A stretch of DNA of 62,705 bases from a virus: positions 1-62,705 of IMG/VR virus record IMGVR_UViG_3300045988_178329. One strand, given 5' to 3'. Each line of letters starts with the position of its first letter. Within the stretch, counting starts at the first letter, position 1. Below, in pieces: positions 6,129 to 43,415 of the stretch. Made by a program: the position numbers and the translations under genes. A model generated the notes under the pieces. It did no database searches, was not told the DNA's origin, and saw only the letters and a list, made by a program, of their open reading frames with translations.

Positions 6129-6151
6129 TGTTTCGTGAAAGGAGAAACCAA

Positions 6152-6801: not shown

Positions 6802-6812
6802 GAGGTAAGGAA

Positions 6813-22842: not shown

Positions 22843-22845
22843 CCT

Positions 22846-22917: not shown

Positions 22918-23289
22918 ATGAAAAAGATAGAAAGTAAATACATTGTACTCTTCTCTAGGGGGAAGTTCACAGTTGCAATGCAAATGGAAGGCTTCTTGAT
23001 GCTTGAAGTGGGAAACCACTTGTTCTGTGGGCTTGGCGATTGTCCATACAAGCTTACAAACGAGGGAAATATATTGCATGAGACAAATAATGGCATGGAA
23101 GCCGATGAATTCGTGAGAAAGGCTAGGCTTAGGGCAAACTCGGAGGACTTCTTGGAGGAAGTGGGGAATGGCAATATGCAAAGCCCATTCTACCAATCGT
23201 TCGTAAATAGCCTTCTGGGACTTGCCAAGAGCCTTGAAAGGGAAATGTCCAATGGAACCAAAAAAAATCTATCTAGGCAACTGCTATGA
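22918..23289 (+). CDS. hypothetical protein (123 aa)
   Basis: ORF. Confidence 0.4.
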   Translation: MKKIESKYIVLFSRGKFTVAMQMEGFLMLEVGNHLFCGLGDCPYKLTNEGNILHETNNGMEADEFVRKARLRANSEDFLEEVGNGNMQSPFYQSFVNSLLGLAKSLEREMSNGTKKNLSRQLL

Positions 23290-24306: not shown

Positions 24307-24927
24307 ATGAGATTAACAAAGAAAAATAATGGAACAGGTAGTTGGACACAATTGGGCGATGAATATTTACCTGCTCACAATGTAAAACATAAAGAATGTG
24401 TCAATAAGCTCGGACAGTTGGAAGATATTGAGGAAAGAATCGGAATCGACCTAGTTACATTGTTCAGGATACTAGAAAGGTTTGACAAGACAATTAGGAA
24501 TGGAGGGTGTGGGAACAGTTATGTCAACTTCCCAGACGGAACGACATTCTCCACCGACATGGGATATGTAGAGGAATTCATCGAAAGGTTCAAAAAACTC
24601 ATCAATGATTACGGAAAGACCTGGGCATTAACAAGGGAGGAATTGGAAAATGCTAGAAATACTAACGATTCAAGAAGAAAGGAGAAATTTATGACATTCG
24701 GAGAAGCATTGGAACTATTGAAGAAAGGCAAGAAGGTAGCAAGGAGAGGTTGGAACGGAAAGGGGCTTTGGCTCGAACTCCAGAGACCTGACAAAAACTC
24801 AAAGATGACCTTGCCATACGTCTACCTTAACTACCCAAGTGGGGACAAGTACCATGATGGTTGCAAAGTACCGTGGTTGCCATCCCAGACTGACATGCTC
24901 GAGCAAGACTGGGTAGAGGTCGAATGA
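24307..24927 (+). CDS. fusion protein: paralog family B N-domain plus C-terminal DUF2829 (Tad2-like, anti-Thoeris sponge family) domain
   Basis: N-terminus MRLTKK..LEDIEE...DYGKTWALTREEL. The C-terminus from internal ATG 24691 (own ribosome-binding site GAAAGGAG) reads MTFGEALELLKKGKKVARRGWNGKGLWLEL...VPWLPSQTDMLEQDWVEV, which matches the DUF2829 consensus. Confidence 0.6.
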   Translation: MRLTKKNNGTGSWTQLGDEYLPAHNVKHKECVNKLGQLEDIEERIGIDLVTLFRILERFDKTIRNGGCGNSYVNFPDGTTFSTDMGYVEEFIERFKKLINDYGKTWALTREELENARNTNDSRRKEKFMTFGEALELLKKGKKVARRGWNGKGLWLELQRPDKNSKMTLPYVYLNYPSGDKYHDGCKVPWLPSQTDMLEQDWVEVE

Positions 24928-26209: not shown

Positions 26210-26508
26210 GGAAGATAGGAAAGATTGTTGCCGATACCGAAAAGGCACTTGAAACCATCGATAGTGGGGAAATACCACCATACCTCGACTGCGACAATGA
26301 GAAAGACCTACTGGACGCCTATGGAGGCGGTTGCATTACCAAGAAACAATTCGAGGAAGGGTGCAAGTACTTTGCCGAAGCGAATGAAAGCATTGCTTAC
26401 AAGGGTAGGGACTATAGACTGGTGCTAAAGGCACTTAGGGGAACGATTACGACACTTACCGAATACATGGAAGATGATAGGGAGGATAGGAAATGGAAAA
26501 GGAACTAG
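26185..26508 (+). CDS. hypothetical protein (107 aa)
   Basis: ORF. Confidence 0.4.
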   Translation: MDIYERTIRKIGKIVADTEKALETIDSGEIPPYLDCDNEKDLLDAYGGGCITKKQFEEGCKYFAEANESIAYKGRDYRLVLKALRGTITTLTEYMEDDREDRKWKRN

Positions 26509-27281
26509 ACATCAATGAGATTGTCAAGTTGATGGAAGAGAACGAAATAGTCGACTTGGAAGGATTAAGGAAGATAATCAAGGACTATGACAGCCTATGC
26601 GAGGATGTCGTACAGCTTACATGCGTCCTTGCGTTGCTTAATTCATTCATAAATGAAAAGGGGTTGAAGGACGAGGCAAGGAAGTACCTTGCAAGGATGC
26701 AACAAGGCAATAACAACAATAATAAGGGGAGGCATGATATAAGAATGGACGAATGGGCGAAAGGGGAAGTTGAACTCTTTTGCAAGGGTCAGGACGATTA
26801 TTGGAAACTATGTGCCAAGAGTGCCCTAAAGGCATTTTTGAGCCTAAGTGATGACAACCATAGTGGTTTCAGCTGGGGAGTGACAACTAGTTTGTTGATA
26901 AGGCTTATGGATGGCCTCCCACTCAGACCAATAGAGGACAGCGACTTCCTTGACCAGGAAGGAATGATACAGCAAAGCGAGGAATATCTTAGGGAATTTG
27001 GGCTTAAGTCCGATCTCCAGTGCAAGAGGATGTCAAGCCTATTCAGACAGGAAACGCTGGACGGGAAGGTAACATACCACTGTACAGACAGGGTGCTATG
27101 CTATGACGAGGAAGATGAAAAGAGGATTCCGTTCACCTGTGGCGAGGGTGCTAGGCTAATCGACAGAATGTTCCCAATTACGATGCCATACTGGCCAACG
27201 GGGGAGAAGTACGTAGTCATGTTCAGGGGTGGCAAGCCGATATGGGTAAGGACGCCAGAAGGGGAGAAGATAGACCTATGA
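26493..27281 (+). CDS. hypothetical protein (262 aa)
   Basis: ORF containing an Asn run. Confidence 0.5.
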   Translation: MEKELDINEIVKLMEENEIVDLEGLRKIIKDYDSLCEDVVQLTCVLALLNSFINEKGLKDEARKYLARMQQGNNNNNKGRHDIRMDEWAKGEVELFCKGQDDYWKLCAKSALKAFLSLSDDNHSGFSWGVTTSLLIRLMDGLPLRPIEDSDFLDQEGMIQQSEEYLREFGLKSDLQCKRMSSLFRQETLDGKVTYHCTDRVLCYDEEDEKRIPFTCGEGARLIDRMFPITMPYWPTGEKYVVMFRGGKPIWVRTPEGEKIDL

Positions 27282-31273: not shown

Positions 31274-32923
31274 ATGGAATTGACAAAGTACCTAGACACG
31301 ATTGCGTTGTCCTGCCTGGGTTTGCAGAAGGCACCCACCCCACTTGAGCTAGAGAAGGCGGTGTTCACGAACGATTTGGAGGGTGTCCTCCACTATAGGC
31401 TTGCAGAAGGCCGTGCATGGTATTCCGCAGATGACGACGAGATACTTGCCTTCTACAACTATTCGGAGAGGGTGGAGTACAATACCGAACCATATAGGTA
31501 CAAGAACAAGCGTTCGTTCTTCTGGGCACGTTCATCACTCGAGGACGAGATGAAGAGGACGCACAGTGGCTTTGCCCGGGATATTGTCGATACAGACGTT
31601 GCACTCCTTGGGCTTCCTAGGATTAAGGTTGGCGTAAAGAGGAAGCCAGATAGCGACCTTATCGACAGGAAGTACCCAACGCTTGACGGGAAGAAGCCAC
31701 AGGAAGCACTTGATGACATAATGGAATACAATGACCTTCCAAGAATGGTTCAGGAAGAGCAGGAACCACTTACCCTGGTAGACGGTTGGGGGGCGTTCAA
31801 GATTACATGGGGAGAGGAAGCTGACGTGCCTCTAGTCCACTACTATGGCGGAGAGAGGGTTAGGATACACTCCAGGGGAAGCTCCGTATTCGGTATGACA
31901 TTCCTTGACTGGTATTCAGATGCACAGGGGAAGAGATACCTCATAGCCGAGACTAGGCTAATGAAGGACGGAAGGGGAATGATACGCTATAACTGCTTTA
32001 GGGACATCGGAAACGGGACCTTGGCTCCGCTTAGCAGGGAAGAGGCTGCGTTCTTCACCAAGGCGCAGGACCTGGATGACCTGCCGTGCCTATTTGCCGT
32101 TCCTACCTCGTTCTATGCGGACACCCAGAATGGACTTCCGGGAAGAAGCATCTTCAATGGCAAGTACAGTGTCTTTGATGACATAGACCAGGCGTTCTCC
32201 CAATGTGCAAATGCCATTAGGCGTTCCACCCCGGTAGAGAAGTTCGACCTCGACTATTGCGAAAGGGACAAGGATGGCATTGCAAGGATGCCTAAGCTCT
32301 TCGAAAGGAGGTACATTGGAATCCGTGGAATGAAGAACGCCTATGGTGAGAAGTCTGGGGACGATCCGGTAACCGTATCCCAGCCAAGGCTAGACATAGA
32401 AATGTATGTCCGTGCAATAGAACTCAATATGAGGAAGGCAATTAACGGACATTTGTCCCCTACTACCATAGGGCTTGATACCGAGAGGAAGGACAATGCG
32501 GACGCCCAGAGGGAATCCGAGAAGATAACAATCTTCACCATGAAGCATCTTGCAGGTAGGGAAAAGAGGATCCTGGAAAGACTAGCGAACCAACTCCTCA
32601 TCGCCTATGAATACATAACTGCCAAGAACCACGTAATCACCTGCGATGACTATGGTGTCAGTGTCGAGTATGATGAGTTCGGCAACCAGAGCTTCGAATC
32701 CAAGATAACCACACTTGCGACAGTACTTGCAAATGATGGCATATCACCTTCAATGTATGTCTCCAAGGTATATGGAGATTCCATATCAGAGGCAGACAGG
32801 AAGGAGGAAATCAAGTGGCTGGAATCCAAGCACACGCTCGAAACCCCCACCGTGCAAGGCGATAGTAGGGGGAAGGAAGGAAACCTCGACGGACTGCTTG
32901 ATGAAATCGGGGACGGTGAATGA
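31274..32923 (+). CDS. putative portal protein
   Basis: 549 aa, no Walker motifs, immediately upstream of the Mu F/SPP1 gp7-like minor head gene, which is the classic gene order. Confidence 0.4.
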   Translation: MELTKYLDTIALSCLGLQKAPTPLELEKAVFTNDLEGVLHYRLAEGRAWYSADDDEILAFYNYSERVEYNTEPYRYKNKRSFFWARSSLEDEMKRTHSGFARDIVDTDVALLGLPRIKVGVKRKPDSDLIDRKYPTLDGKKPQEALDDIMEYNDLPRMVQEEQEPLTLVDGWGAFKITWGEEADVPLVHYYGGERVRIHSRGSSVFGMTFLDWYSDAQGKRYLIAETRLMKDGRGMIRYNCFRDIGNGTLAPLSREEAAFFTKAQDLDDLPCLFAVPTSFYADTQNGLPGRSIFNGKYSVFDDIDQAFSQCANAIRRSTPVEKFDLDYCERDKDGIARMPKLFERRYIGIRGMKNAYGEKSGDDPVTVSQPRLDIEMYVRAIELNMRKAINGHLSPTTIGLDTERKDNADAQRESEKITIFTMKHLAGREKRILERLANQLLIAYEYITAKNHVITCDDYGVSVEYDEFGNQSFESKITTLATVLANDGISPSMYVSKVYGDSISEADRKEEIKWLESKHTLETPTVQGDSRGKEGNLDGLLDEIGDGE

Positions 32924-33669
32924 ATAGGGACGTAGCTAGGGGAACCAAGGGGACGCTGCTCGCACTGGGCACGTCCCTTTTCTCGGTAGGGACGATCCAA
33001 CATGCAAGGAAGAGCGTCTATGCTTACCTAACCTCCACCGTGCAATGGGCGGATTCCATTGGGCTGCATGGGGTACTGGAAGCTGCCATATCGGTGGCTA
33101 GGACCTATGTAGGGAGGAAGTTGGAGTTCGAGCCAACCTCATTCATGCAGATGGCGTTCCCTAGAATCGTCAAGGCGTTCAACCGTGCAAATAGGCGTAG
33201 GTGGGTTAGGACTAGGAAACTGGACGTAGCCAATACGCTGCGACTTGGGCTTGGTGCCGATAGGGTATTCTTCCTTGTATCGAGCCACCAGAACCCACAA
33301 AAGGCACATGCCCCGTTCCAGGGAAGGATCCTCGTCAACAGCCATTGGAGGTCGCTTGGGGAGGGTTACCGTGCAAGGGTCGGATCGTATGTTAGGAACA
33401 GGAAGGTAATGTCTGTGCAAAGGGCAATGCGTGAACCGTATTACCTGTTCGTCAGACCAAACTGCATGCACTACCTGATTCCACTTGACACAGAAGAAGT
33501 GCTCAGTTCTTCCCCTACTGCCGTTGCAAGGAGGCACCGTGCAACCGAGAGAAGGGTTCGTAGGCCATATACGGACAAGCAACTGTATAGGCAGCGTAGG
33601 GCACTCTACCTCCTAACCCTTGGGTTACTAGAAAAGAAACTTGGGAGAAGTGGGATAAAGGCAAAATGA
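32920..33669 (+). CDS. phage minor head (head morphogenesis) protein, Mu F/SPP1 gp7 family
   Basis: C-terminal ...FQGRILVNSHW...YLFVRPNCMHYLIPL matches the F-like hPNCRC box. Five copies of ACCGTGCAA lie inside this gene. Confidence 0.55.
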   Translation: MNRDVARGTKGTLLALGTSLFSVGTIQHARKSVYAYLTSTVQWADSIGLHGVLEAAISVARTYVGRKLEFEPTSFMQMAFPRIVKAFNRANRRRWVRTRKLDVANTLRLGLGADRVFFLVSSHQNPQKAHAPFQGRILVNSHWRSLGEGYRARVGSYVRNRKVMSVQRAMREPYYLFVRPNCMHYLIPLDTEEVLSSSPTAVARRHRATERRVRRPYTDKQLYRQRRALYLLTLGLLEKKLGRSGIKAK

Positions 33670-33712
33670 AAAAAAGGGTTTGGGATTCAGATCCTAAGCC
33701 CTTTTCCTTTGC
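33668..33712. terminator. bidirectional terminator between convergent modules
   Basis: AAAAAGGGTTTGGG...CCTAAGCCCTTTT hairpin overlapping both stop codons. Confidence 0.5.
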
Positions 33713-34017
33713 GATGAAATCCTCTTTGCCTCCTCTTCGGTTTCCACGAATCGCCCCTTTACATAGTAGTACTTCATACATGTATCCCTGTCTGGGTAGC
33801 CACCGTATTTGTCTGGGCTATCATCTATGAAGCACTCGAACCACTTTGGGGTTTCCCCATCGTAGCCCTCGTACATATGCCCGTAGGCTTCCAGAAACGC
33901 CTCTATGGCCTCTTTTGCAATGTCGATGGATGGAAGTAGCCTCCACCTCCCAATTTGCTCTCCATAGGCCTCAGAATACCTTACAAGGACTGTTGCATCG
34001 TATAGGTATCTATCCAT
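33694..34017 (-). CDS. hypothetical protein (107 aa)
   Basis: ORF on the minus strand. Confidence 0.45.
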   Translation of the reverse strand: MDRYLYDATVLVRYSEAYGEQIGRWRLLPSIDIAKEAIEAFLEAYGHMYEGYDGETPKWFECFIDDSPDKYGGYPDRDTCMKYYYVKGRFVETEEEAKRISSQRKRA

Positions 34018-34198
34018 TGTTTCGCTTTGCCCTCCTTCCCTCGCATATGAAGTCTATCTTTCCCCTCTTGGTGTCGATTACCCTTACATCCCAATTGATG
34101 AGCCTCAGAAGTTTCTTGGCCTTATGGATTGCTGCAATCCTTGTATGGAATATTTCCGTAGGTATTTCAAGCCCTTGGTTAATGATTAGTGAGTACAT
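34010..34198 (-). CDS. hypothetical protein (62 aa)
   Basis: ORF. Confidence 0.35.
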   Translation of the reverse strand: MYSLIINQGLEIPTEIFHTRIAAIHKAKKLLRLINWDVRVIDTKRGKIDFICEGRRAKRNNG

Positions 34199-34203
34199 TT
34201 TCT

Positions 34204-34467
34204 TTACTTAACCTCTCTTACTATCTTTTCGAGAATGATGTTGCCTGTCCTTGTTACATGGTAGGAGAATACGTAAGTCCTACCCTCTTGGATCACATAG
34301 CCAAGTGCAGCATCTGTCTTTGTCTTGGCATTGCTTTCATACCCAGTGGAACTCTCTATTACCGCTGCATAGCGTGGGTTTCCGTAATAGGAGTTGTTTA
34401 GCCTTGTGAGTTCCAAGACCTTGAATGTTCCGTTCATCTTGTTTTTTCCTCCGAACCTTGCTCCCAC
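34204..34467 (-). CDS. hypothetical protein (87 aa)
   Basis: ORF; its sigma70 promoter lies at 34483-34511. Confidence 0.45.
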   Translation of the reverse strand: MGARFGGKNKMNGTFKVLELTRLNNSYYGNPRYAAVIESSTGYESNAKTKTDAALGYVIQEGRTYVFSYHVTRTGNIILEKIVREVK

Positions 34468-34482
34468 TTTGGAAGCATAACC

Positions 34483-34511
34483 ATCTTAAGGGTATTCCAG
34501 AATATTGTCAA
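34483..34511 (-). promoter_or_regulatory. sigma70-like promoter TTGACA-N17-TAAGAT
   Basis: Read on the minus strand; preceded by an AT-rich UP-like tract and a CACCGTGCAA motif at 34565-34574. Confidence 0.55.
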
Positions 34512-34584
34512 GTGTTTTTTAAAAATTTTATTAAAGGTATTAGAAGTAATCGGAGAAACTGTACCACCGTGCAAAACCCTAGCA

Positions 34585-34612
34585 GCAAAAAAAGGGGAGT
34601 GTGTTTCCCCAC
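34585..34612 (-). terminator. rho-independent terminator
   Basis: GGGG-aaacacac-CCCC followed by TTTTTTT on the minus strand. Confidence 0.55.
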
Positions 34613-34615
34613 CCC

Positions 34616-34861
34616 CTAGAGTTCCTCTTCGTAAACCCTATCGATGAACTCCCCTTCTTCTGAACGTTCCTCGATTACGATTTCGGAGTTCGGAAACGGC
34701 TTGCTGCTTTCAAGTTCATCAATTCTGGAATCGACAAAGGCTAGGGCTTCCCTTTCGCTAGGGAAGGAACCAAGCGACATTTCATTGCCGTTTGGTGTCC
34801 CATCTTCCTCGTAGCCTAGTATTACAACCTCGTAAATCATTAGCATACCTCCCATAGCCAT
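34616..34861 (-). CDS. hypothetical acidic protein (81 aa)
   Basis: ORF, Glu/Asp-rich. Confidence 0.45.
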   Translation of the reverse strand: MAMGGMLMIYEVVILGYEEDGTPNGNEMSLGSFPSEREALAFVDSRIDELESSKPFPNSEIVIEERSEEGEFIDRVYEEEL

Positions 34862-35397
34862 CCATCAATGAGGCGTTCCCTATTTGGGTTTAGCCAAACG
34901 ACTTCGCCACTGTACTTGGAATCCACTTCATTTGTGATCCTGAACTTCCCAAGGCTATCGCGTAACGCTCTTGTCATCTTGGCACATGTATCATGGGTTA
35001 GCGTTCCATTTTGGAATACTATGTGTTCGCTAAACTCCATGCCTTCCTCTTCGCTAAACACCTCTATATTACACCCTAGGGAACTTATCTGCCCTAGCGT
35101 AGTTCCCATGAATATTTCAGGGTGTTCCTTGTTGAATTCGTTGTAGTAACTATTCTTGCCAGAAAGCATACAACAATGGACACTCCAAGCACATACACCA
35201 TATGCGTAGAGAACATAACCGTTCGAGGTTTCCTTTATTCCCCCAAACTCATTGTCTACCCTGAAGAAGTGCCTAGCCTTTGGCTTGACATTCTTTAGGT
35301 AGTTATAGTCGCTGTTGTTTAAGGTGGCAAGGAGATATTCAAGAACCTCCCTGTCCTTAGATTTTGCCCTTAATTCGTAGTTGCAATCGTTTGCCAT
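34840..35397 (-). CDS. hypothetical protein (185 aa)
   Basis: ORF. Confidence 0.5.
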   Translation of the reverse strand: MANDCNYELRAKSKDREVLEYLLATLNNSDYNYLKNVKPKARHFFRVDNEFGGIKETSNGYVLYAYGVCAWSVHCCMLSGKNSYYNEFNKEHPEIFMGTTLGQISSLGCNIEVFSEEEGMEFSEHIVFQNGTLTHDTCAKMTRALRDSLGKFRITNEVDSKYSGEVVWLNPNRERLIDGWLWEVC

Positions 35398-35775
35398 TTA
35401 TCTATCCTCCTTGGATTTGATTTCTTCCCTTTCCTTGTCTAACCACTTCTTTAAGGCTTCCCCATCAAATTCGGAAACCATTTTCTTTAGGTTGCCTAGA
35501 TACCTACTTGATTCTGCTAAGTTGCAACCCTTTAGGTAGTGCATGAAGTAGTACTCCACTTGGCTACCGTATTGGTAACGGATAAGGTAGTAGCCACTTG
35601 TTAGGATGCCATTGTATTCAGCGACTAGGTGATCTTGAACCAATTCTTTTTTGATGTCCCTTCCAATATTCCAAGAAGAGTTGTCCCAATTCCTGAAGGT
35701 ACGTTCTAGAGTTTCGGTTGGTTGGGGTATTCCTTCATAGCCCCCAATCGCCTTTAGTTCGGTTTTGATGTGCAT
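35398..35775 (-). CDS. hypothetical protein (125 aa)
   Basis: ORF; promoter TTGACA-N17-TAAGAT at 35808-35836. Confidence 0.5.
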   Translation of the reverse strand: MHIKTELKAIGGYEGIPQPTETLERTFRNWDNSSWNIGRDIKKELVQDHLVAEYNGILTSGYYLIRYQYGSQVEYYFMHYLKGCNLAESSRYLGNLKKMVSEFDGEALKKWLDKEREEIKSKEDR

Positions 35776-35807
35776 GTTCTATGCTCCTTTTCTTCCCCTA
35801 TGGCAAT

Positions 35808-35836
35808 ATCTTAAGTCACTTTGAAATTTGTGTCAA
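35808..35836 (-). promoter_or_regulatory. sigma70-like promoter TTGACA-N17-TAAGAT
   Basis: Canonical spacing on the minus strand. Confidence 0.55.
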
Positions 35837-35889
35837 TAAAAATTTTAAAAAAAGTTTAAACGATATATATGTGTACGCAGAAATCCACC

Positions 35890-36040
35890 CACCGTGCAAT
35901 TAGGAAAGGGGCGCAGATGTCTCTCTTGTGTGGTTATATTTCTCTAAGGACTGCCTACGGTGGGGACAGCAAGGTCTAGTGAGTGGCATACCCATTTCTC
36001 CGATTCTATGGGTAGGGGAAGGATGACCACTTGCACGGTA
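35890..36040. repeat. Inverted-repeat-flanked intergenic unit: CACCGTGCAA, about 130 bp, then TTGCACGGTA
   Basis: 10-bp terminal inverted repeats. The unit sits between the terminator of 36083..36706 and the promoter of 35398..35775. Confidence 0.7.
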
Positions 36041-36043
36041 ACT

Positions 36044-36078
36044 CTTAAAAAGAGTAGGGGAGTTTTGCCCTCCCCCTT
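36044..36078 (-). terminator. rho-independent terminator
   Basis: GGGAG-ggcaaaa-CTCCC followed by a T-run on the minus strand. Confidence 0.5.
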
Positions 36079-36082
36079 TTCC

Positions 36083-36706
36083 CTAGTGGAACTTGAAATA
36101 AACCGACTGCCCTTTTCTTAATGTCCAGCAGGCTAGGCACTCTGGGCAACTCCCACCGCATGGAATGGCGGTCTCTGGGATTTTCGGATTCATCTCCGCT
36201 TTTTTAAAGAACACATAGGCAACGGGGAACTTGTAGGGGTTGTCCACCTTGAACGCCTTAGACCATGCAGAGAACACGATTCTTAAGTTGCTAGGTATCT
36301 TCCCACCGTTTGCAACGTAGCCGTTTACTATGTCAAACTTCTTTGTAAAGCATAGGAACCTAACGCCCTTGCACTTCCTTGCAACCTCTATCATGCCATC
36401 GAAATAGGAAGCGTCTACGATGTCCCCTACAGAATGCCATCTAAAGTACTTATAGGTAACTAGGGAGTTATTAAGGAACGAGGCTATTTCATCAAAGAAG
36501 CCCCTAGGATCTTCCTTGTAGAACAAGGCGTTTGACATGATGGAATTCTGAACGTTCTTGTAGGTGAAATTGCCCTTTTTGCCGTAGCACCCATGAGCAC
36601 ATGGGGCGTCAGCCCTACAGCTGCATTGTGGGGCGAGGTTTACGCTTGGGATTTGGAATCCCAGTTTTGAGTTTGTGGTTGAGATTTTGACTTGCATAAT
36701 TGCCAC
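36083..36706 (-). CDS. Cys-rich protein (two Cys clusters; putative metal or Fe-S binding)
   Basis: CSCRADAPCAHGCYGKKG and CGGSCPECLACW. Confidence 0.5.
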   Translation of the reverse strand: MAIMQVKISTTNSKLGFQIPSVNLAPQCSCRADAPCAHGCYGKKGNFTYKNVQNSIMSNALFYKEDPRGFFDEIASFLNNSLVTYKYFRWHSVGDIVDASYFDGMIEVARKCKGVRFLCFTKKFDIVNGYVANGGKIPSNLRIVFSAWSKAFKVDNPYKFPVAYVFFKKAEMNPKIPETAIPCGGSCPECLACWTLRKGQSVYFKFH

Positions 36707-36808
36707 TCCTTTTTGATGATTACATTCTAATGCATCCCATTATGGAAGTAAAGAGAAAAATAAAAATTTCCTAAATGAGTTTAGAAGTCATCGAATGTCT
36801 GAAACAAC

Positions 36809-36957
36809 CACCGTGCAATTTGATGATAGGGATGGAAAACGGATTTCAAAAAGTACACCAAACCTTCTGGAGAACTTTTGCTGCTGGGGCAAGAAAAGCG
36901 GATGCCGTTCCACCCCCAATTTTGGGGTATGGGGAAATCCGACCTTGGTTGCACGGA
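36809..36957. repeat. Inverted-repeat-flanked intergenic unit: CACCGTGCAA, about 130 bp, then TTGCACGGA
   Basis: Same architecture as 35890-36040. The overlapping short track ORFs 36775..37209, 36788..37018, 36795..37001 and 36878..37081 are considered spurious. Confidence 0.65.
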
Positions 36958-37149
36958 GCACTTCTTTTCGGTTTCCGAACCATTTCAGACAAAAGAGATA
37001 ACAACACAAGATATGCAAATGCCCCTAGAAATCGTTTCTGGGGCGTTCCTATGCGTTTCGTTTCCCTTTGTGGTAATTTAACGCTCTCTAAAGCCTTAAA
37101 AATGAAAAGCCCCCTTTTTCTAGAGGGCTTAGGGATCTCTTTCCCTTTC

Positions 37150-37641
37150 CTAGTTGGCTTTCTTGATTTCGGCTTCCACCTCCTCCCATTCGCTATCTAT
37201 GAAGTCTAGGGCTTCCTCTAGACCGTAATCGATTCTAGAAACCTCTTTACGGTTATTGTTTAGATAGTCGATGAAAGAATCATCGTTGATTGCCTCAAAC
37301 ACAATATCACTGGTTGACTTGGTTTCTATGTGGCCGTATCCGTTGAGCCTGAAATATTCATCGCTCATGTTTACGCTTCCATAGTAGCAGGCCATTAGGG
37401 CATCCCAATGGCTGCTGAAGGTGTTGTCTATTTCCTCATCGTTAAATTCGATGTAGCAATCGCCTGGGTAGTAGTTTCTTAGATAGTCGTTATAGGCATC
37501 TATGACGTCTTGGCTACTTGCTTCGCCTAGGGCGTCCTTTATGAGCGAACGCTCAAGGTTCTCTGAGGAATCGCTTGGGTAACGATTTTCGGCAATGTAT
37601 TCTGCCATTGCCTTGGGGTTTGTGAGTTTTGATAGGTTCAT
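37150..37641 (-). CDS. hypothetical highly acidic protein (163 aa)
   Basis: Asp/Glu-rich ORF; a promoter with A-tract motif lies upstream. Confidence 0.5.
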   Translation of the reverse strand: MNLSKLTNPKAMAEYIAENRYPSDSSENLERSLIKDALGEASSQDVIDAYNDYLRNYYPGDCYIEFNDEEIDNTFSSHWDALMACYYGSVNMSDEYFRLNGYGHIETKSTSDIVFEAINDDSFIDYLNNNRKEVSRIDYGLEEALDFIDSEWEEVEAEIKKAN

Positions 37642-37667
37642 ATTTGTGTCTCCTTTTCAGACAATAC

Positions 37668-37733
37668 CATTATAGAAAATGGGTAGGGTAAGTAAATAGA
37701 AAAGTTAAATTTTTAGGTTCATTTAAGGTTGGC
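37668..37733 (-). promoter_or_regulatory. Promoter region with A-tract motif AACCTTAAATGAACCTAAAAAT, TTTTCTATTTACTT box and TATAAT
   Basis: Minus-strand copy of the 1643 and 17967 element. Confidence 0.55.
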
Positions 37734-37745
37734 TGAAATTCATGG

Positions 37746-37895
37746 TGCCGTGCAATTATAGGGGGTCAAGGAAGCAATGGAAGGCAATGGCTTCGGATTC
37801 ATTTTCTGGCTCAAAAAGGTAGTAGGGATAACTAGGTGTATATTTTATACAGTCGGTTTTGGGGCACTTGGGGAGGGCTGACTTTTTGCACGGTA
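37746..37895. repeat. Inverted-repeat-flanked intergenic unit: GCCGTGCAA, about 130 bp, then TTGCACGGTA
   Basis: Same architecture as 35890-36040. Confidence 0.65.
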
Positions 37896-37902
37896 CGATG
37901 AT

Positions 37903-37934
37903 ACAAAAAAGGAAGGGTGTTTTCCCTTCCCTTT
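37903..37934 (-). terminator. rho-independent terminator
   Basis: GGAAGGG-aaaaca-CCCTTCC followed by TTTTTT on the minus strand. Confidence 0.65.
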
Positions 37935-37939
37935 CAGAC

Positions 37940-38278
37940 TTAATTATCGGTTTCTTCCAACACTTCTTCAATCGCCTTTTGGCAATCTTCCTTGTTAGCA
38001 TAGAAGCCTACAAATGGGTGATACCAGTAAGATCCGACTTCGGCAATTCTCTCTATTGCAAAGTCATCTTCATTTTCATCTTCTTCGGTTTCATAGACTG
38101 TGAAATCATATTCATCGGGTGTGGTGATTTCAACGTTGTTATAGGACTTGTATATCTTTGGATCAAGTTCATCGAATATGGAATCCAATGAATAGAATTC
38201 CCCTTCATAGACAACCTTGTTGTTGTTTCCATAGTCGGTGATTTTAATTGTTTTGCTCTTCATATTTTTTCCTTTCAT
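37940..38278 (-). CDS. hypothetical highly acidic protein (112 aa)
   Basis: ORF rich in Glu/Asp. Confidence 0.5.
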   Translation of the reverse strand: MKGKNMKSKTIKITDYGNNNKVVYEGEFYSLDSIFDELDPKIYKSYNNVEITTPDEYDFTVYETEEDENEDDFAIERIAEVGSYWYHPFVGFYANKEDCQKAIEEVLEETDN

Positions 38279-38332
38279 TGTATGGGAGCTACGGCTTTTG
38301 CATAGCCCCTAGAATTTGTTCGTAGGCAACGC

Positions 38333-38593
38333 CTACATATGTTTTAGGGTGAAACAGTAATCCTTCCAGAAATCTAGAAGGTTTAACTTGTTGTCATACT
38401 TTTCGATGATGTCAGAAATGTCTATTCTTTCATCAAAATGTTGTAGGAAGTAGAGGTATTCATCAAAGAAGTCATAGACTTCGTTTTCGTCAATACCGAA
38501 ACGATTAGAGTAATCGACAGTCATTATGGAATTGAGTGTAACATCTTCCCTAAGCTTGATTACTTGAGATGGCATGAGGTCTTGAATGTGCAT
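38333..38593 (-). CDS. hypothetical protein (86 aa)
   Basis: ORF; promoter TTGACA-N16-TAGAAT at 38622-38649. Confidence 0.45.
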   Translation of the reverse strand: MHIQDLMPSQVIKLREDVTLNSIMTVDYSNRFGIDENEVYDFFDEYLYFLQHFDERIDISDIIEKYDNKLNLLDFWKDYCFTLKHM

Positions 38594-38621
38594 ATTGTTC
38601 CCCCTTTCTTGGGATACACTA

Positions 38622-38649
38622 ATTCTACCATTAACGATATAGTTGTCAA
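38622..38649 (-). promoter_or_regulatory. sigma70-like promoter TTGACA-N16-TAGAAT
   Basis: Minus strand. Confidence 0.5.
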
Positions 38650-38712
38650 TAGGAAAATTAAAAAAAGTTTACAATGATTAGTTCTGAACGGACTTTTTCC
38701 GCGGAATAATGG

Positions 38713-38871
38713 CACCGTGCAACTCAATTGGTTGCCATGTGTGGATTTGGTTTTCTACAAGGTCAGAAGCCTTTCGGCTACCCTTTGCTTCCGTTTGCTT
38801 TTCGCCTACCATAGGCAGCGGTGGAAATGGTGGAGTGGAAGAATTCCCTACCCGATCGGACTTGCACGGTA
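38713..38871. repeat. Inverted-repeat-flanked intergenic unit: CACCGTGCAA, about 140 bp, then TTGCACGGTA
   Basis: Same architecture as 35890-36040. Confidence 0.65.
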
Positions 38872-38917
38872 GCCCCTAGGAAAAAAAGCGCCCTAGGTTT
38901 TTCTAGAGCGTCTTTCC

Positions 38918-39631
38918 CTAAAATGTAATGTTGCTTCTAAACAAGGCTATTACAGGTGTTTCCTCAAAGTTTTTTGTATCGGTACTAACTATGTTTGCAA
39001 CGTATTCGTTTTCGAATTCGCTACTTGGTCCAGAAACAATTCTTATGTACTTTCTACCTAGGTTCTTGGCAACCTTTATTAAATCTTCGAGTTTGCTAAC
39101 GGAAAAGAGCCTATCTATAGTTTGCTCATAGTTTTGGTGGAAGAAACTAAGCTCTACATCATCGAATTCAACATTGTCAAAATATACAACGTCTTTTTCG
39201 ATGGCTTCTAACAAAGAGAAAGAGGCGTATTGTATGCCGTTATGCTTTAGCAACAACAATGTTCTGTAATCACATTCGATCTGGAAATCAAATTCGTACT
39301 TTGGGAAGTTTTTCAACATTTCAGATAGTTTCTTGGTGTTTAGGTCAATTCTGAAATTCTTGCTTACATAGGCTCTGAAAACCTTATGCAAAGGTAGGCA
39401 ATACCTAGTTGAAAAGACATGTATGCAATTTTTGTCCTTTTCGCCTATAATGCTAATTTTACTTTTCATTTCTCCATTCATTTCGCAATTCTGGGAAAAG
39501 GCAACTAGGGTGGAAATGAATTCTTTGTGGGTGGTTAGCCCAAAGTCGGCGGAGGTTTCTTCGAAACCTTGTACCTTGTCAAAGGAAGGTGCTAAGCTTT
39601 CCTTGACTTGGTTAACTGTAAGTTTGTCCAT
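38918..39631 (-). CDS. hypothetical protein (237 aa)
   Basis: ORF with AAAGGAG ribosome-binding site; promoter TTGACA-N16-TAGAAT at 39675-39702. Confidence 0.55.
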   Translation of the reverse strand: MDKLTVNQVKESLAPSFDKVQGFEETSADFGLTTHKEFISTLVAFSQNCEMNGEMKSKISIIGEKDKNCIHVFSTRYCLPLHKVFRAYVSKNFRIDLNTKKLSEMLKNFPKYEFDFQIECDYRTLLLLKHNGIQYASFSLLEAIEKDVVYFDNVEFDDVELSFFHQNYEQTIDRLFSVSKLEDLIKVAKNLGRKYIRIVSGPSSEFENEYVANIVSTDTKNFEETPVIALFRSNITF

Positions 39632-39674
39632 TTGTTCTACTCCTTTAAATGGGTGTTCCTTTTGGAACGATATA

Positions 39675-39702
39675 ATTCTACCATTTCAGATATATGTGTC
39701 AA
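39675..39702 (-). promoter_or_regulatory. sigma70-like promoter TTGACA-N16-TAGAAT
   Basis: Minus strand. Confidence 0.5.
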
Positions 39703-39738
39703 TACTTTTTTAAAACAAAGATTACAATGTATAGTAGC

Positions 39739-39893
39739 CACCGTGCTATTTTTGAAATGGGGTAACGGAAACCCCAGATTTGCAAATGGTGGGAAAACCA
39801 CCTTTCAAAAAACAATAGTCAAAATATAAGCTTAGGAAAATGACACCCCAAATTGTCTAGGGTAGAAAAAAAAGGGGGGTACCTTGCACGGTG
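39739..39893. repeat. Inverted-repeat-flanked intergenic unit: CACCGTGCTA (degenerate), about 135 bp, then TTGCACGGTG
   Basis: Same architecture as 35890-36040. Confidence 0.6.
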
Positions 39894-40027
39894 GCGGATC
39901 CCTGAAATTCTGGAAGCTTTGAAAAATTTTTATAGGGATGTCTGAAACGAGGAAAACCCATAAAAACGGTTTCTAGGCGTTCCTAGGGCTTTTCAGTGTG
40001 GTTAATATAATTTTCCAAACAACAAAA

Positions 40028-40078
40028 GAAAACGCCCCTAGGGGCTTAAAAAAGAGCCGTTTTTTAATTCGGCTCTCT
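40028..40078 (-). terminator. tandem rho-independent terminators
   Basis: AGAGCCG-loop-CGGCTCT followed by TTTTTT, then the palindromic hairpin GCCCCTAGGGGC. Confidence 0.65.
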
Positions 40079-40088
40079 TCCTTAGTTT

Positions 40089-40508
40089 TTAATATCCTAA
40101 ATCTATTACATTTTGTAAAGTTAGGTAAATTATTAATTTAAGCATGAAATCCATTTTATCTTTATTCCATGTTTTCATTTCTTCATCGGTTGCTTCTAGA
40201 ATGTTTCCTAGAATTTCAATAGGCGATTCGGAGTAGTTGAGAATCTTAGGTTTTTTTCCTAGCCATTCTATGAAAGCATCGCTATAAGAGCCATTTTTTA
40301 GACTATATGGATTAAACGGATTAAATTTTACTTCTTCTTCAAATGTTCTATTTATTGCAAGTGCATAATCTCTAAAATCATTAGGGTTATATAATTCGGT
40401 TTTGTCTAGGTGGGTATGTTCCAAGATGAACTTTCTTAATTTTTGGATGGCTTTTGGTGAATTTGCTCTAATCATAATTTTTTCTCTTTCCAAGGGGGCT
40501 TTTTTCAA
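40089..40508 (-). CDS. paralog family C member (139 aa)
   Basis: N-terminus MIRANSPKAIQKLRKFILEH, paralogous to 40522..40896. Confidence 0.5.
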   Translation of the reverse strand: MKKAPLEREKIMIRANSPKAIQKLRKFILEHTHLDKTELYNPNDFRDYALAINRTFEEEVKFNPFNPYSLKNGSYSDAFIEWLGKKPKILNYSESPIEILGNILEATDEEMKTWNKDKMDFMLKLIIYLTLQNVIDLGY

Positions 40509-40521
40509 GCCCCCTATTTCT

Positions 40522-40896
40522 TTATTTAATCGCCTTTCTTACTCTTCTATAAATCATATATGATAATAGGCTTTCGGCTTGGGTTTCGCTAAACCTTGCT
40601 TTTTCTTCCTTGGTTTCTTCCAATATATCGCCTAGGGTTTCAACGGCTGAAACATTGTAATAATAGGAAGTGTCTATAATTGATGGCAACCATTGCAACC
40701 AACTAATGAACGCTTCTTGTTCATTTTGTCTTCTTTCAGATGGGGTGGAGTATACCTCTTTAACGAATTCATCATAGATGGCTTTCATACATTCGTTAGG
40801 GGTGGATGGGGTGAAGTCATAGCCATCAAAGTCGCATCCATCTAAGATGAACTTCTCTAAATTGGCTTGGGCTTTTTTTGAGTTTGTTCTAAGCAT
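40522..40896 (-). CDS. paralog family C member (124 aa)
   Basis: N-terminus MLRTNSKKAQANLEKFILDG; promoter TTGACA-N17-TAACAT at 40924-40952. Confidence 0.5.
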   Translation of the reverse strand: MLRTNSKKAQANLEKFILDGCDFDGYDFTPSTPNECMKAIYDEFVKEVYSTPSERRQNEQEAFISWLQWLPSIIDTSYYYNVSAVETLGDILEETKEEKARFSETQAESLLSYMIYRRVRKAIK

Positions 40897-40923
40897 GATT
40901 TTAACCTCCCTGCTTATGAGAAG

Positions 40924-40952
40924 ATGTTAAACCCATTTCTAAAAGTTGTCAA
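40924..40952 (-). promoter_or_regulatory. sigma70-like promoter TTGACA-N17-TAACAT
   Basis: Minus strand. Confidence 0.5.
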
Positions 40953-41013
40953 TACTTTTTTTAAAACTTTTTTAATACTCCTAGAAATCATCTACACTTT
41001 TTCAGACATCCTT

Positions 41014-41059
41014 TTGCACGGACTAGGGTTTTTGCACGGAGCTTACCTTGTTGCACGGC
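41014..41059. repeat. Three direct copies of TTGCACGG at 18-19-bp spacing
   Basis: TTGCACGGA at 41014 and 41032, TTGCACGGC at 41051. On the minus strand they sit between the terminator of 41104..41325 and the promoter of 40522..40896. Confidence 0.7.
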
Positions 41060-41071
41060 TTTTCTGGGTAA

Positions 41072-41103
41072 TGGAAAAAGAGGGGTTTGTTGTCCCTCCC
41101 TTT
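41072..41103 (-). terminator. rho-independent terminator
   Basis: GAGGG-acaacaaac-CCCTC followed by TTTTT on the minus strand. Confidence 0.5.
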
Positions 41104-41325
41104 TCAGATACCTTCCACACCGTCTAGACCGTCAAGGAACTCTTGGCAAATGGAAGCGGTATCGTCTAACCATTCTTGCCTTTGGCTTTGGGCTTCGGTT
41201 AGTTCGCTTCTTCCTTCATAGGGTTCAATGTCATTGCTAACTTGTTCAATGTGTGATTTGAGAGTGTCAACTATGTTGTAGACACTTCTCAACATTTTGA
41301 TGAAATAGGTTTTTGAGTAAGTCAT
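41104..41325 (-). CDS. hypothetical acidic protein (73 aa)
   Basis: ORF; the upstream region carries four phased AACCT(T)AAA repeats. Confidence 0.45.
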   Translation of the reverse strand: MTYSKTYFIKMLRSVYNIVDTLKSHIEQVSNDIEPYEGRSELTEAQSQRQEWLDDTASICQEFLDGLDGVEGI

Positions 41326-41382
41326 TTTGTGTTCTCCTTTGAACGTCTATATTATATAAAAGTCAATAGAAAAATAAAACAC

Positions 41383-41426
41383 CTTTTAGGTTGATTTAAG
41401 GTTCTTTAAGGTTCATTTTAGGTTGT
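41383..41426 (-). promoter_or_regulatory. Four phased A-tract repeats (AACCTAAAATG, AACCTTAAAG, AACCTTAAATC, AACCTAAAAGG; 10-11-bp period) upstream of a promoter
   Basis: Helically phased A-tracts of the UP-element or curved-DNA type. A CACCGTGCAA-family motif lies at 41440-41449. Confidence 0.55.
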
Positions 41427-41496
41427 CTGAAAAAGCTACTTGCACGGTAACGGATCCATTGAAAAACCCTAGGTTTCCCTAGGGCTTGGGTTTGGA

Positions 41497-41767
41497 TTAG
41501 AAATAACAAGCGTTTCTATATTCCTTCAACATTCTATATTTGTCCTTACCGCAATAGATATGTTGGTCTTTGTATTCTTCCTCTACCAAGCGAGTTTCGA
41601 AGCCATCGAAGAAGTTCATTACTTCCTCTTCATCAATGCCATATTGGTTCTTGTAGCCCCTTCCACCGATGAAATCATTGATGGTGATTTCAAGGTAGAG
41701 ATTCCAAAGTGCATCATTTGGTAAATCACCGATTGTGATTTTTGGGGGTGTTGTTTTCTTTTTCCAT
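41497..41767 (-). pseudogene. frameshifted gene: ATG with strong ribosome-binding site, 13 codons, stop, then continuation in the +1 frame across a C5A5 run
   Basis: On the minus strand: AAAGGGAG-N7-ATG GAA AAA GAA AAC AAC ACC CCC AAA AAT ... TGA. The adjacent frame reads ITIGDLPNDALWNLYLEITINDFIGGRGYKNQYGIDEEEVMNFFDGFETRLVEEEYKDQHIYCGKDKYRMLKEYRNACYF with no start codon of its own. Confidence 0.4.
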
Positions 41768-41814
41768 TTTGTTTTCTCCCTTTGAAACCCCTATTTTTAC
41801 CCCTATTTGATTTC

Positions 41815-42000
41815 TTACCTATCTAGCGACAATTCCACTTGGAACCATGATTTCGCTTCGCCTTTGGACTTAGCCTTAGCCCAAATCCACCTAATCCATT
41901 CGATATGGTTTCCTAGGGGCTTTTCATAGCCTATGGCTTTCTTAGCCCTTAGCAAGGTTTTTTGGTAAGCCTTGACTTGTTTGTTTGTTTCTAGTTTCAT
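41815..42000 (-). CDS. hypothetical basic protein (61 aa)
   Basis: ORF; promoter TTGACT-N16-TATCAA at 42014-42041. Confidence 0.4.
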   Translation of the reverse strand: MKLETNKQVKAYQKTLLRAKKAIGYEKPLGNHIEWIRWIWAKAKSKGEAKSWFQVELSLDR

Positions 42001-42055
42001 AACCCAAACTCCTTTGATAAGAAAAGTTTAAGGAAAGTCAATGATTTTGTAAACA

Positions 42056-42122
42056 TCTTTTAGGTTATTTTTAGGTTGATTTAAGGTTGGACAATTGCCA
42101 GAAACCCATACTTGCACGGTGG
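42056..42122 (-). promoter_or_regulatory. A-tract repeat block (AACCTTAAATCAACCTAAAAATAACCTAAAAG) plus CCACCGTGCAAG motif
   Basis: Same element family as 41383; lies downstream of the terminator at 42130-42160. Confidence 0.5.
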
Positions 42123-42129
42123 CCAGACA

Positions 42130-42160
42130 ATAAAAAATGGGAAGCGTTTTGCTTTCCCAT
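42130..42160 (-). terminator. rho-independent terminator
   Basis: GGGAAAGC-aaaac-GCTTCCC followed by ATTTTTT on the minus strand. Confidence 0.6.
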
Positions 42161-42170
42161 TTGCCTCGCT

Positions 42171-42365
42171 TCATTCGCCTCCTATTAGGCGTTTTGGGTT
42201 GCCTAGCGCCCTTTGAAGTAGTCTTACTTGTGATTCGTTCTCCAAGCGCCAAACAACCTTAGTATGAGATTTGTCAAGCCTTGTTTCAGACATTATCAAA
42301 TCGGCTAGGCATCTATGGGCATAACTCCCCATTTGGTAATTGTTTAAGATTGCGTTTACTTTCAT
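42171..42365 (-). CDS. hypothetical protein (64 aa)
   Basis: ORF with AAAGGAG ribosome-binding site. Confidence 0.4.
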   Translation of the reverse strand: MKVNAILNNYQMGSYAHRCLADLIMSETRLDKSHTKVVWRLENESQVRLLQRALGNPKRLIGGE

Positions 42366-42437
42366 TTTAATTTCTCCTTTGTTCCCCTACGATTATAAGC
42401 ATACACCTGCAAGGGCTCAAATCAACAAAGTGAGAAC

Positions 42438-42496
42438 CATTTTTAGGTTGTTTTAAGGTACAAAAAAATGCCCCATTGGGACATCTTCTTGCACGG
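42438..42496 (-). promoter_or_regulatory. A-tract motif ACCTTAAAACAACCTAAAAAT, terminator hairpin and CCGCCGTGCAAG motif
   Basis: Same element family; terminator ATGTCCC-a-ATGGGGCAT followed by TTTTTTT on the minus strand. Confidence 0.5.
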
Positions 42497-42508: not shown

Positions 42509-42886
42509 CTAGTCCTTCTTGTAGATTTTCCTGAGTTCCTTCTTAACGAGCTTGTAGTCCCTCTTCGGAAGGTCTGAGGTAACGTAGTCTACCATTACCT
42601 CTTCTCCGTTGTAATGACCAACGAATCCGACAAAGGCTGGTTCCCTATCCACGATGTCGATGCAGACTATGATGACTTCCTTGCTCTCCTCGTTGTAGCT
42701 GAACATCACCTGCGAGACAAGTATCTCCTGCCACTTGGAAAGCTGGGATAGGTATCCGCTTGGGTTTGTCCTTGCCATCCTGTTGACCTTCTCCTCCGTA
42801 AAGGTAAGCCAGAGAACGCCATCCACACCTATCGCATTTGCTATCGGCCTATTCAATTTCCACAGTCTCAAATCCTCTATGTTCAT
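42509..42886 (-). CDS. hypothetical protein (125 aa), first gene of the minus-strand module
   Basis: ATG at 42886 with GGAGGAG ribosome-binding site; the longer track ORF extending to 42985 lacks a ribosome-binding site. Confidence 0.5.
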   Translation of the reverse strand: MNIEDLRLWKLNRPIANAIGVDGVLWLTFTEEKVNRMARTNPSGYLSQLSKWQEILVSQVMFSYNEESKEVIIVCIDIVDREPAFVGFVGHYNGEEVMVDYVTSDLPKRDYKLVKKELRKIYKKD

Positions 42887-42921
42887 GTGTCTCCTCCATA
42901 AGGAAATTATACACTTTCCTA

Positions 42922-43165
42922 TTGACTGTGTATACACCAACCTTCGACTTTTTGAAAAATGTGGTACTCTCGGGAGGATGGACATATCTATTTTAATATC
43001 TTTTATATATATCTATAAAAGATATGTAAAATATATATGTAAATGTCAACCTATTCTGTTATGGAAGAAATAAAAAACATTTTGAAAAAATAAAATGTAA
43101 AATAAAAAAGAATTAGGTTTTTTCCACCGTAGAAAAAGTCAATAGCAATTATATATGTAATATAT
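42922..43165. repeat. Copy 2 of the duplicated AT-rich regulatory or origin-like region (copy 1 at 29565..29790), bounded by inverted copies of AAAAAGTGGTACTCTCGG
   Basis: Blocks shared with copy 1, the palindrome GTGTATACAC at 42928-42937, and an inverted-repeat partner at 43176-43196. Confidence 0.6.
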
Positions 43166-43200
43166 AAAAACGCTTCCGAGAGTACCACTTTTTGAGATAA

Positions 43201-43226
43201 CGTAACAAAACGGCAAATTTGTTACG
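43201..43226. promoter_or_regulatory. Perfect 9-bp inverted repeat CGTAACAAA-N8-TTTGTTACG (operator-like) upstream of the late operon
   Basis: Palindrome lying in the divergent control region. Confidence 0.45.
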
Positions 43227-43415
43227 CTAACTCGGTTTTTGACCTATTTCTCCTGTGGTTAAATTTTTGCCTTTCCTTTCTATTTTTCTCGCACGGGTGC
43301 GTACGTGGCACACAAGAAAAGTTTCCAATTTTGTCTGACTTGCCTTAAAATATGATCGAAAGCCATTGGTCGCTAGAAAAAGGCCAAGATTAAACTCGTA
43401 TGGAGAGGGTAAGCC

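Follow-up and report, generated by a model that had tools for sequence, protein, structure and literature searches.

We analysed an uncultured phage genome, IMG/VR record IMGVR_UViG_3300045988_178329, over its full 62,705 nucleotides (hereafter the window); the ENA scaffold COST17-1_SAMEA4545335 scaffold_257 (61.3 kb) is the same sequence. Genes run rightward over 1–33.7 kb, leftward over 33.7–43.0 kb and rightward again from 43.4 kb. The leftward block contains many small ORFan genes, with a promoter and a terminator for each, and the structural genes form the last block. ORFans make up most of the phage proteins, and the early proteins are nearly all without a family assignment. No tRNA and no Rfam family was found in the window. 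The source looks like a virulent gut phage. Its primase-helicase and large terminase resemble only proteins of Bacillota phages (24–36% identity), a similarity that would place the host no more precisely than in the Bacillota. A DNA search with the array region found no match in cultured phages, and a search with the 740-aa tail protein returned no match.

Several features of the layout were observed alongside the arrays described below. The last gene of the replication/recombination operon is that of the large terminase (16205–17752); some 26 kb separate it from the structural block, which starts at 43416. A divergent control region (42887–43415) separates the early and structural blocks; it holds a 21-bp inverted repeat (42956–42976 and 43173–43193) around an AT-rich palindrome (42991–43030), which together could be a switch or an origin. 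A GP88-domain protein is encoded at 36083–36697. The neighbours at 40089–40475 and 40522–40896 are paralogous, with a DNA stretch that is 73% identical, and paralogous small genes also lie near 2.5–3.4 kb (2536–3460; protein starts MRYIRTKNG and MKYVRTKDG). On the plus strand, a near-consensus promoter-like TTGAAA-16-TATAAT (1466–1493) is followed by a terminator (1607–1636). The candidate transcript of about 140 nt (1466–1640) has no convincing ORF, a fold z-score of −1.8 and no Rfam match, and is possibly a small RNA.

The repeat AACCTWAAA occurs in 15 exact copies, against 2.06 ± 1.51 expected, a number reached in none of 100 dinucleotide shuffles. Allowing one mismatch brought the count to chance level (52 vs 49 expected), so the signal resides in the exact core. 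Together with two in-register units of the form TACCTTAAA, the exact copies make 17 units in seven arrays of two to four units, with a period of 11 bp (10 bp at one junction). All 17 units share the direction of the downstream gene, and both strands are used. The usual order is distal AACCTTAAA and proximal AACCTAAAA; in two arrays (1642 and 42441) the first unit is TACCTTAAA. The arrays are as follows.

1642–1661, plus strand: two units, TACCTTAAA TC AACCTAAAA; opens the unit that starts at gene 1730; begins 6 nt past terminator hairpin 1607–1636, inside its T-rich tail
17967–17986, plus strand: two units, AACCTTAAA CA AACCTAAAA; directly behind hairpin 17937–17958 and a T7 run
22841–22860, plus strand: two units in swapped order, AACCTAAAA CC AACCTTAAA; overlaps the stop of ORF 22510–22842, no terminator upstream
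37711–37730, minus strand: two units, AACCTTAAA TG AACCTAAAA; TTGCACGG lies 17 nt upstream of the array
41384–41424, minus strand: four units, spaced 11, 10 and 11 nt; the array singled out by an earlier sequence-only reading
42058–42088, minus strand: three units; the distal unit is degenerate (AACAT...) in four strain variants
42441–42460, minus strand: two units, TACCTTAAA AC AACCTAAAA; directly behind hairpin 42469–42483 and a T7 run

All arrays are intergenic, apart from the stop-codon overlap at 22841, and each is followed by a −10-like hexamer, an AAAGGAG ribosome-binding site and an ATG (7 of 7). Hairpin and T-run terminators lie just upstream of five of the seven (1642, 17967, 41424, 42088 and 42449), and three of these five touch the T run. 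The sequence-only reading had described the repeats as a 10–11-bp phased element upstream of promoters on both strands. They are present and enriched where it placed them, its coordinates being right to within 1–5 nt, and all seven arrays stand before a −10-like hexamer with that phasing. The four tandem repeats that it counted at 41383 on the minus strand were recovered, and its copies at the starts of the plus-strand transcription units correspond to the arrays at 1642 and 17967, which open units at 1.7 and 18.0 kb. Iterons or centromeres of the ParR/parC type would form one or two long arrays, typically of five or more copies, at an origin or partition locus. Here we found seven short arrays of two to four units, each at a fixed distance from a different promoter, and therefore not that class. 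The operons behind the 17967 and 22841 arrays were also seen to include two DNA methyltransferase genes (20177–21877 and 23222–23854), a Tad2-like gene (24307–24927) and a Tad3 anti-Thoeris gene (26493–27281).

Promoters behind the arrays

A candidate promoter was found behind every array. Four of the seven (those with TTTACT-16, TTTACT-17, TTTACA-17 and TTGAGC-17) were found independently by a consensus scan. Distances are from the array end to the start of the −10.

1676–1704, plus strand: predicted promoter TTCCAT-17-TAATAT, 37 nt; a weak prediction made by eye, below the consensus-scan threshold
18002–18030, plus strand: promoter-like TTTACT-17-TAGAAT, 38 nt; gene start 18058
22866–22894, plus strand: predicted promoter TTTACC-17-TACACT, 28 nt; gene start 22918; 8/12 consensus matches, below the scan threshold
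37669–37696, minus strand: promoter-like TTTACT-16-TATAAT (10/12), 36 nt; gene 37641–37150
41351–41379, minus strand: predicted promoter TTTTAT-17-TATAAT, 27 nt; gene 41325–41104; a TTTTCTATTGACTT box lies inside the spacer
42025–42053, minus strand: promoter-like TTTACA-17-TAAACT, 27 nt; gene 42000–41815
42392–42420, minus strand: promoter-like TTGAGC-17-TATAAT, 43 nt; gene 42365–42171

We scored the geometry on 25 distinct array-promoters of the window, of ten strain variants and of two relatives, one 90–95% identical (IMG/VR UViG_3300045988_178073) and one at 81%. Nine of the 25 had a distance of 27 nt from array end to TAnnnT start and two had 28 nt, while 36, 37 and 38 nt were found in five, three and three, over a background of one to three at other offsets. 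The −35 hexamer begins 4–5 nt past the proximal unit, or a helical turn beyond that, and in the 27-nt class the unit occupies about −48 to −40 relative to the predicted start. The 43-nt offset of the array at 42449 is out of phase with both main distance classes.

The proposal of the sequence-only reading that these sites form a shared promoter class is supported, including at the starts of the plus-strand units at 1.7 and 18.0 kb. Its description of a box followed by a −10-like TATAAT held in part. A −10-like hexamer follows all arrays, and the box TTTTCTATTKACTT is exact after three of them (1681, 37690 and 41360), with a one-base deletion after 17967; at two or fewer mismatches there were 7 matches, against 2.19 expected. 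The role of the box is inconsistent, its TTKACT serving as the −35 in two promoters and falling within the spacer in others, and TTTTCTATTKACTT is not supported as a consistent promoter element. The idea of a weak −35 as a general feature of the class was weakened in turn by the 81% relative. There the arrays are followed by N5 and a consensus TTGACA, and several modules (L261) have no −10-like hexamer downstream, so a weak −35 is not general and not every array module is a plain promoter.

A second class of promoters was observed on the minus strand, with −35 elements at 39702, 38649, 40952, 35836 and 34511 and the form AAAAAAGTATTGACA-16/17-TAGAAT or TAAGAT. Two of these promoters carry a TG extension, they have long A/T tracts where the array promoters have AACCT units, they are interleaved with the array promoters, and theirs is the sole class in a 62% relative.

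Conservation and variation among relatives

We located orthologous arrays by BLAST through their flanks, so that motif integrity was no criterion for selection. Across strain variants, 7 of 117 core columns were polymorphic, compared with 7 of 15 linker columns (p = 1.2e-4) and 42 of 400 flank columns. The window and its closest relative alone differed at 0 of 117 core positions and 3 of 15 linker positions (p = 0.0012). Unit positions 1, 2, 4, 6 and 7 (A, C, T, A and A) never vary across strains; the changes seen affect W, either terminal base and, in one distal unit, the second C (to A). The ACCT and AA positions are almost invariant, the 2-nt linkers are nearly saturated with changes, and the best-conserved positions include C/G pairs. 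Selection acts on the 9-bp cores and not on the whole stretch. DNA bending or contact by the C-terminal domain of the RNA polymerase alpha subunit (alpha-CTD) needs only the A runs, and the retention of ACCT therefore points to a sequence-specific protein.

The arrays are confined to this phage species and the 81% relative, and are absent from the 62% relative and a 47% relative. In the 62% relative, long A/T tracts occupy the same place, before GTATTGACA; five 'class A' promoters of the window likewise have long A/T tracts and no arrays. The tracts in the array-less relative suggest that the arrays replace a generic upstream element, and from these sequence comparisons the arrays look like a lineage-specific, factor-dependent substitute for it. 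The 90–95% relative and the strain variants carry extra or different gene cassettes, and those of the strain variants each have their own terminator, CCGTGCAA motif, array and promoter. Sequence shared between the window and the 90–95% relative continues to the last base of the array at 42449 and then diverges fully. At 41497–41800 the window holds only short broken ORFs, and a close relative (L013, about 6600–6910) has an intact gene with a three-unit array; this stretch of the window looks like a decayed cassette.

The second repeated motif, CCGTGCAA, is present in 22 exact copies, against 1.05 expected, all within 10 kb of the window (32410–42496). Copies include the following.

41440–41447, minus strand: CCGTGCAA between terminator and array
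42112–42119 and 42489–42496, minus strand: further copies of CCGTGCAA
37748–37755: inverted copy
36031–36038, 37886–37893, 38862–38869 and 41014–41058: exact copies

On the early strand, every terminator has CCGTGCAA behind it and, some 146 bp on, an inverted copy (TTGCACGGTGG) that precedes the next promoter. Six copies fall inside ORFs 31274–33669, in mixed reading frames. Conservation of the motif extends to the 62% relative, which has 20 copies in 9 kb; its form in the 81% relative is CCGTGCCCC. What lies between the copies is dissimilar from one segment to the next, and structured RNA in the 146-bp segments between inverted copies was rejected, as they fold no better than shuffled sequences. 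In relatives (L134 and L261), a palindrome, GTTTCACGTGAAAC, lies between a CCGTGC motif and the early promoters; it is not in the window. Searches of viral contigs with the gapped pattern CCGTGCAA...AACCTWAAA gave mostly noise, the densest match (L016) being an unrelated 60-bp coding tandem repeat, and with the three-unit pattern the matches were perfect 11-bp tandem repeats of marine and giant viruses, unrelated to the arrays. In the literature searched, the motif strings turned up in primers only.

The CiaR box and candidate binders

Read as the reverse complement, two units (TTTWAGGTT-N2-TTTAAGGTT) correspond to the CiaR box, NTTAAG-N5-TTTAAG. CiaR is the OmpR-family regulator of the streptococcal CiaRH system, and its box precedes the −10 by 10 nt; T3, A5 and G6 are fixed in it, and positions 1 and 4 can differ (PMC3091779). 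The Bacillus anthracis homologue of CiaR (BAS0540) binds the same box (PMC4938410). All seven phage arrays contain a hexamer direct repeat with an 11-bp period (6 + 5), and the complement of the unit reads YTTWAG GTW. Across strains the box-equivalent T2, T3 and A5 never vary, G6 varies once, and variation falls at positions 1 and 4. The half-sites on the opposite strand follow the order of the bacterial promoters, TTTTAG (the weaker) and then TTTAAG, and the phage element and the bacterial one are identical at 18 of 20 positions.

This bacterial element emerged from a scan for AACCTTAAANNAACCTAAAA in one bacterial genome per species, which gave at least 120 loci, 118 of them scorable among the matches listed. 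In 44 of these 118 listed matches, TTTTAGGTTNNTTTAAGGTT had a TAnnnT that started exactly 7 nt past GGTT; the figure for other offsets was about 4. In the reverse-complement reading the bacterial matches are TTTTAGGTT-NN-TTTAAGGTT, with the box 10 nt upstream of the −10, which is the CiaR geometry. Among the matches listed, a ribosome-binding site and start codon follow 35–90 nt further on, and the Clostridia concerned are Lachnospiraceae, Butyrivibrio, Blautia, Roseburia, Faecalibacterium and Ruminococcaceae MAGs. The Streptococcus mitis match has the box before a gene for a solute-binding protein.

The genes behind the 20-mer in gut and rumen Clostridia encode OmpR-family regulators (Response_reg + Trans_reg_C), VTC, CotH and Cthe_2159. 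The promoters that precede them have the form TTTTAGGTT-N2-TTTAAGGTT-N7-TAnnnT (loci L141, L143, L169, L173, L187, L189, L193, L198, L200, L206, L210, L217, L226, L230, L258 and others). The OmpR-family regulator genes are apparently autoregulated, and the recognition helices of the regulators behind two clostridial promoters, VIWVYISYLRKKI and VVWVYISNLRKKL, are close to that of CiaR, VVEVYVSKVRKKL. Judged by its motifs, the clostridial promoter set looks like a widespread CiaR-like regulon, of which we found no description in the literature searched.

The placement of the box in the phage departs from the direct box 10 nt upstream of the −10 that CiaR-type promoters have. No TAnnnT lies 10 nt past any array in the TTTAAG direction, and the window contains no canonical site; that direction runs from the arrays into the upstream terminator. 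With no −10 on that side, the phage boxes are inverted and lie 17–28 nt further from the −10 than the canonical box. We also rejected the arrays as canonical regulator-dependent promoters firing antisense, there being no −10 at the required distance. Among the 118 scorable bacterial matches listed, no enrichment of a −10 was seen on the AACCT side of the box, and bacteria thus do not commonly use the phage arrangement. A phage-like layout does exist in one Butyrivibrio locus type, with a divergent promoter whose −10 is 37 nt from the box.

With moderate confidence, we propose from these correspondences that the arrays are binding arrays of a CiaR-like winged-helix regulator, probably the host's, and define one promoter class. 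Each array would be a row of two to four head-to-tail sites for an OmpR/PhoB-family winged-helix regulator of CiaR-like specificity, and the binder would most probably be a response regulator of the Bacillota host. With their proximal edge 27–28 or 36–38 nt upstream of the −10, the inverted boxes would lie immediately before the −35, spanning about −40 to −85, and the bound regulator may help to recruit RNA polymerase in the manner of a class-I-type activator. The seven transcription units would form a single co-regulated class, dependent on the activity of a host two-component system. This class would comprise three long plus-strand operons (recombination, replication and terminase; methyltransferases; anti-defence) and four small early cassettes.

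A binder encoded by the phage itself would also explain core selection and fixed geometry, which suit any sequence-specific protein. An ORFan would bind the arrays as a tandem multimer and switch the promoter class on or off; the class would then be timed by the phage (middle or delayed-early), and the likeness to the CiaR box would be coincidence or mimicry. The restriction of the arrays to the species and its 81% relative is what a lineage-specific factor would give, and early proteins of unassigned family are plentiful. One of them is the 125-aa product of 42509–42886, the first gene of the leftward early unit, which has three homologues only and, within the DNA compared, is found only in array-bearing phages. 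Its predicted structure (pLDDT 57) is too poor for a fold search, and no candidate has a DNA-binding signature. Among the phage proteins scanned we found no Trans_reg_C, sigma or other recognizable activator domain, and the only DNA-binding domains were those of two XRE-type HTH proteins (6128–6433 and 6813–7049). Chance is also a poor explanation for identity at 18 of 20 positions with the same fixed and variable positions and the same half-site order, and we consider a phage-encoded binder rather unlikely. A 278-aa protein of a distant relative (L138, 16114–16950, minus strand) combines an RNA polymerase alpha C-terminal domain with a UPF0122 HTH; the window has no homologue of it, and we set it aside.

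The sequence-only reading had explained the repeats as intrinsically bent, UP-element-like DNA. Helical phasing is present, and a wedge model predicted 34–43 degrees of curvature per 31 bp at six of the seven array centres, in the 94th–99th percentile. Compared with random windows of the same length, however, curvature gave p values of 0.008–0.42 and was unexceptional at five of the seven arrays (p 0.07–0.42), so that the predicted curvature is moderately high but not exceptional. The A runs of the arrays are short, with 3–5 nt compared with the 4–6 nt of curved phased A-tract DNA, and interrupted by TpA steps. A factor-independent upstream element, acting through a phased A-tract bend, alpha-CTD contact or both, would account for A runs at about −43, −54 and −65, positions at which A-tracts are reportedly enriched upstream of Bacillus subtilis sigma-A promoters (Helmann 1995). 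It would fit the plain A/T tracts at other promoters of the phage and its relatives, and the proximal unit, at −48 to −40, overlaps the proximal UP subsite. Neither curvature nor alpha-CTD contact needs ACCT, yet C/G pairs are among the best-conserved positions and the linkers are free to vary. As the main cause, a bend or UP element leaves both ACCT conservation and the match to the CiaR box, with its choice of variable positions, unexplained; we judge this explanation quite unlikely, and the array promoters are probably regulated rather than merely placed on bent DNA.

It is improbable that the arrays bind a regulator for some purpose other than activation, namely repression, a roadblock or insulator backing the terminators, or a decoy for a host regulator. 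A distance to the −10 that is tight and in phase with the helix is what one would expect if the arrays contact RNA polymerase, and not if they are a roadblock or decoy, and a site upstream of the polymerase footprint is poorly placed for simple occlusion. Such roles would nevertheless suit the five arrays directly behind a terminator (three touching the T run), the orientation opposite to the canonical activating box, the 17 units per genome multiplied by genome copy number, and the array and TTGACA modules of the 81% relative that have no −10. That the repeats are mainly recombination boundaries for swapping promoter-gene-terminator cassettes, without a regulatory role, is very improbable: the homology break exactly at the end of the 42449 array and the complete modules around strain-specific cassettes are in its favour, but homologous exchange would be poorly served by identity that is interrupted and only 20–40 bp long, selection is on the 9-bp cores rather than the whole stretch, and the fixed distance to the −10 is left unexplained.

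Returning to binding by a CiaR-like host regulator, we put forward only tentatively the wider claim that, by means of inverted box arrays, this virulent-looking gut phage has placed an entire promoter class under the control of a host two-component system. If true, phage expression would read out a host envelope or stress signal, multiplying arrays could drain the regulator from the host's own regulon, and this would be a clear case of a phage programme coupled to a host two-component signal. Next to nothing is known of the promoters of uncultured gut phages or of how their genes are regulated, and a conserved cis-element tied to a known regulator family predicts a host protein that would control phage transcription. 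The host would have to carry a CiaR-like regulator and regulon, and the element may thus aid host assignment. Response-regulator boxes, inverted upstream boxes and UP-like elements are each already known separately; we know of no description of a phage promoter class made of inverted, multi-copy CiaR-type box arrays.

Comparison with known systems

UP elements are A/T-only and degenerate, with the consensus AAAWWTWTTTTNNAAAA / AAAAAARNR; Escherichia coli rrnB P1 has one, and DNA upstream of phage SP82 promoters is curved. The phage arrays share with UP elements and upstream A-tracts the location just upstream of the −35 (about −38 to −60), the 10–11-bp phasing of A runs and a moderately high predicted curvature. 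They differ in sequence: every unit carries CC, and their ACCT core is both the most constrained part and a match to a transcription-factor box.

T4-type phages have promoter-early stem-loop (PeSL) cassettes: in a hypervariable region, small early genes that are ORFans are flanked by a repeated module of terminator and promoter. The phage shows the same recurring module and variable small genes. Its close relatives have other sets of cassettes, joined at the repeated module, and one break coincides exactly with the end of an array. The T4-type phages have hosts of another phylum and other promoter sequences, and the module here adds the repeat array and CCGTGCAA.

A precedent for the inverted placement comes from Salmonella PhoP, whose direct boxes lie 12 or 21–23 nt from the −10 and whose 'architecture V' has a box in reverse orientation 30, 37, 47–49 or 58 nt upstream of the −10; upstream, non-overlapping PhoP boxes appear to work through alpha-CTD (PMC3335776). 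In both systems a direct-repeat box of the OmpR/PhoB family is used reversed and upstream of the −35, at discrete helix-face positions. The 27–28 and 36–38 nt of the phage fit the PhoP series once the 2-nt difference between the canonical distances (12 vs 10) is corrected for. The regulator, the box sequence and the phylum are different, and PhoP reverse-box promoters usually carry a second box and drive horizontally acquired chromosomal genes, not a phage promoter class.

The CiaR box promoters have the same 11-bp hexamer direct repeat as the arrays, the same invariant and variable positions and the same half-site order; in Streptococcus and gut Clostridia, canonical promoters are built on the identical 20-mer. 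CiaR box promoters have two units, whereas the phage arrays have up to four, and three bases beyond the hexamer (GTT) are conserved in the phage unit. The phage box is inverted and lies 27–38 nt upstream of the −10, compared with 10 nt at the CiaR box promoters.
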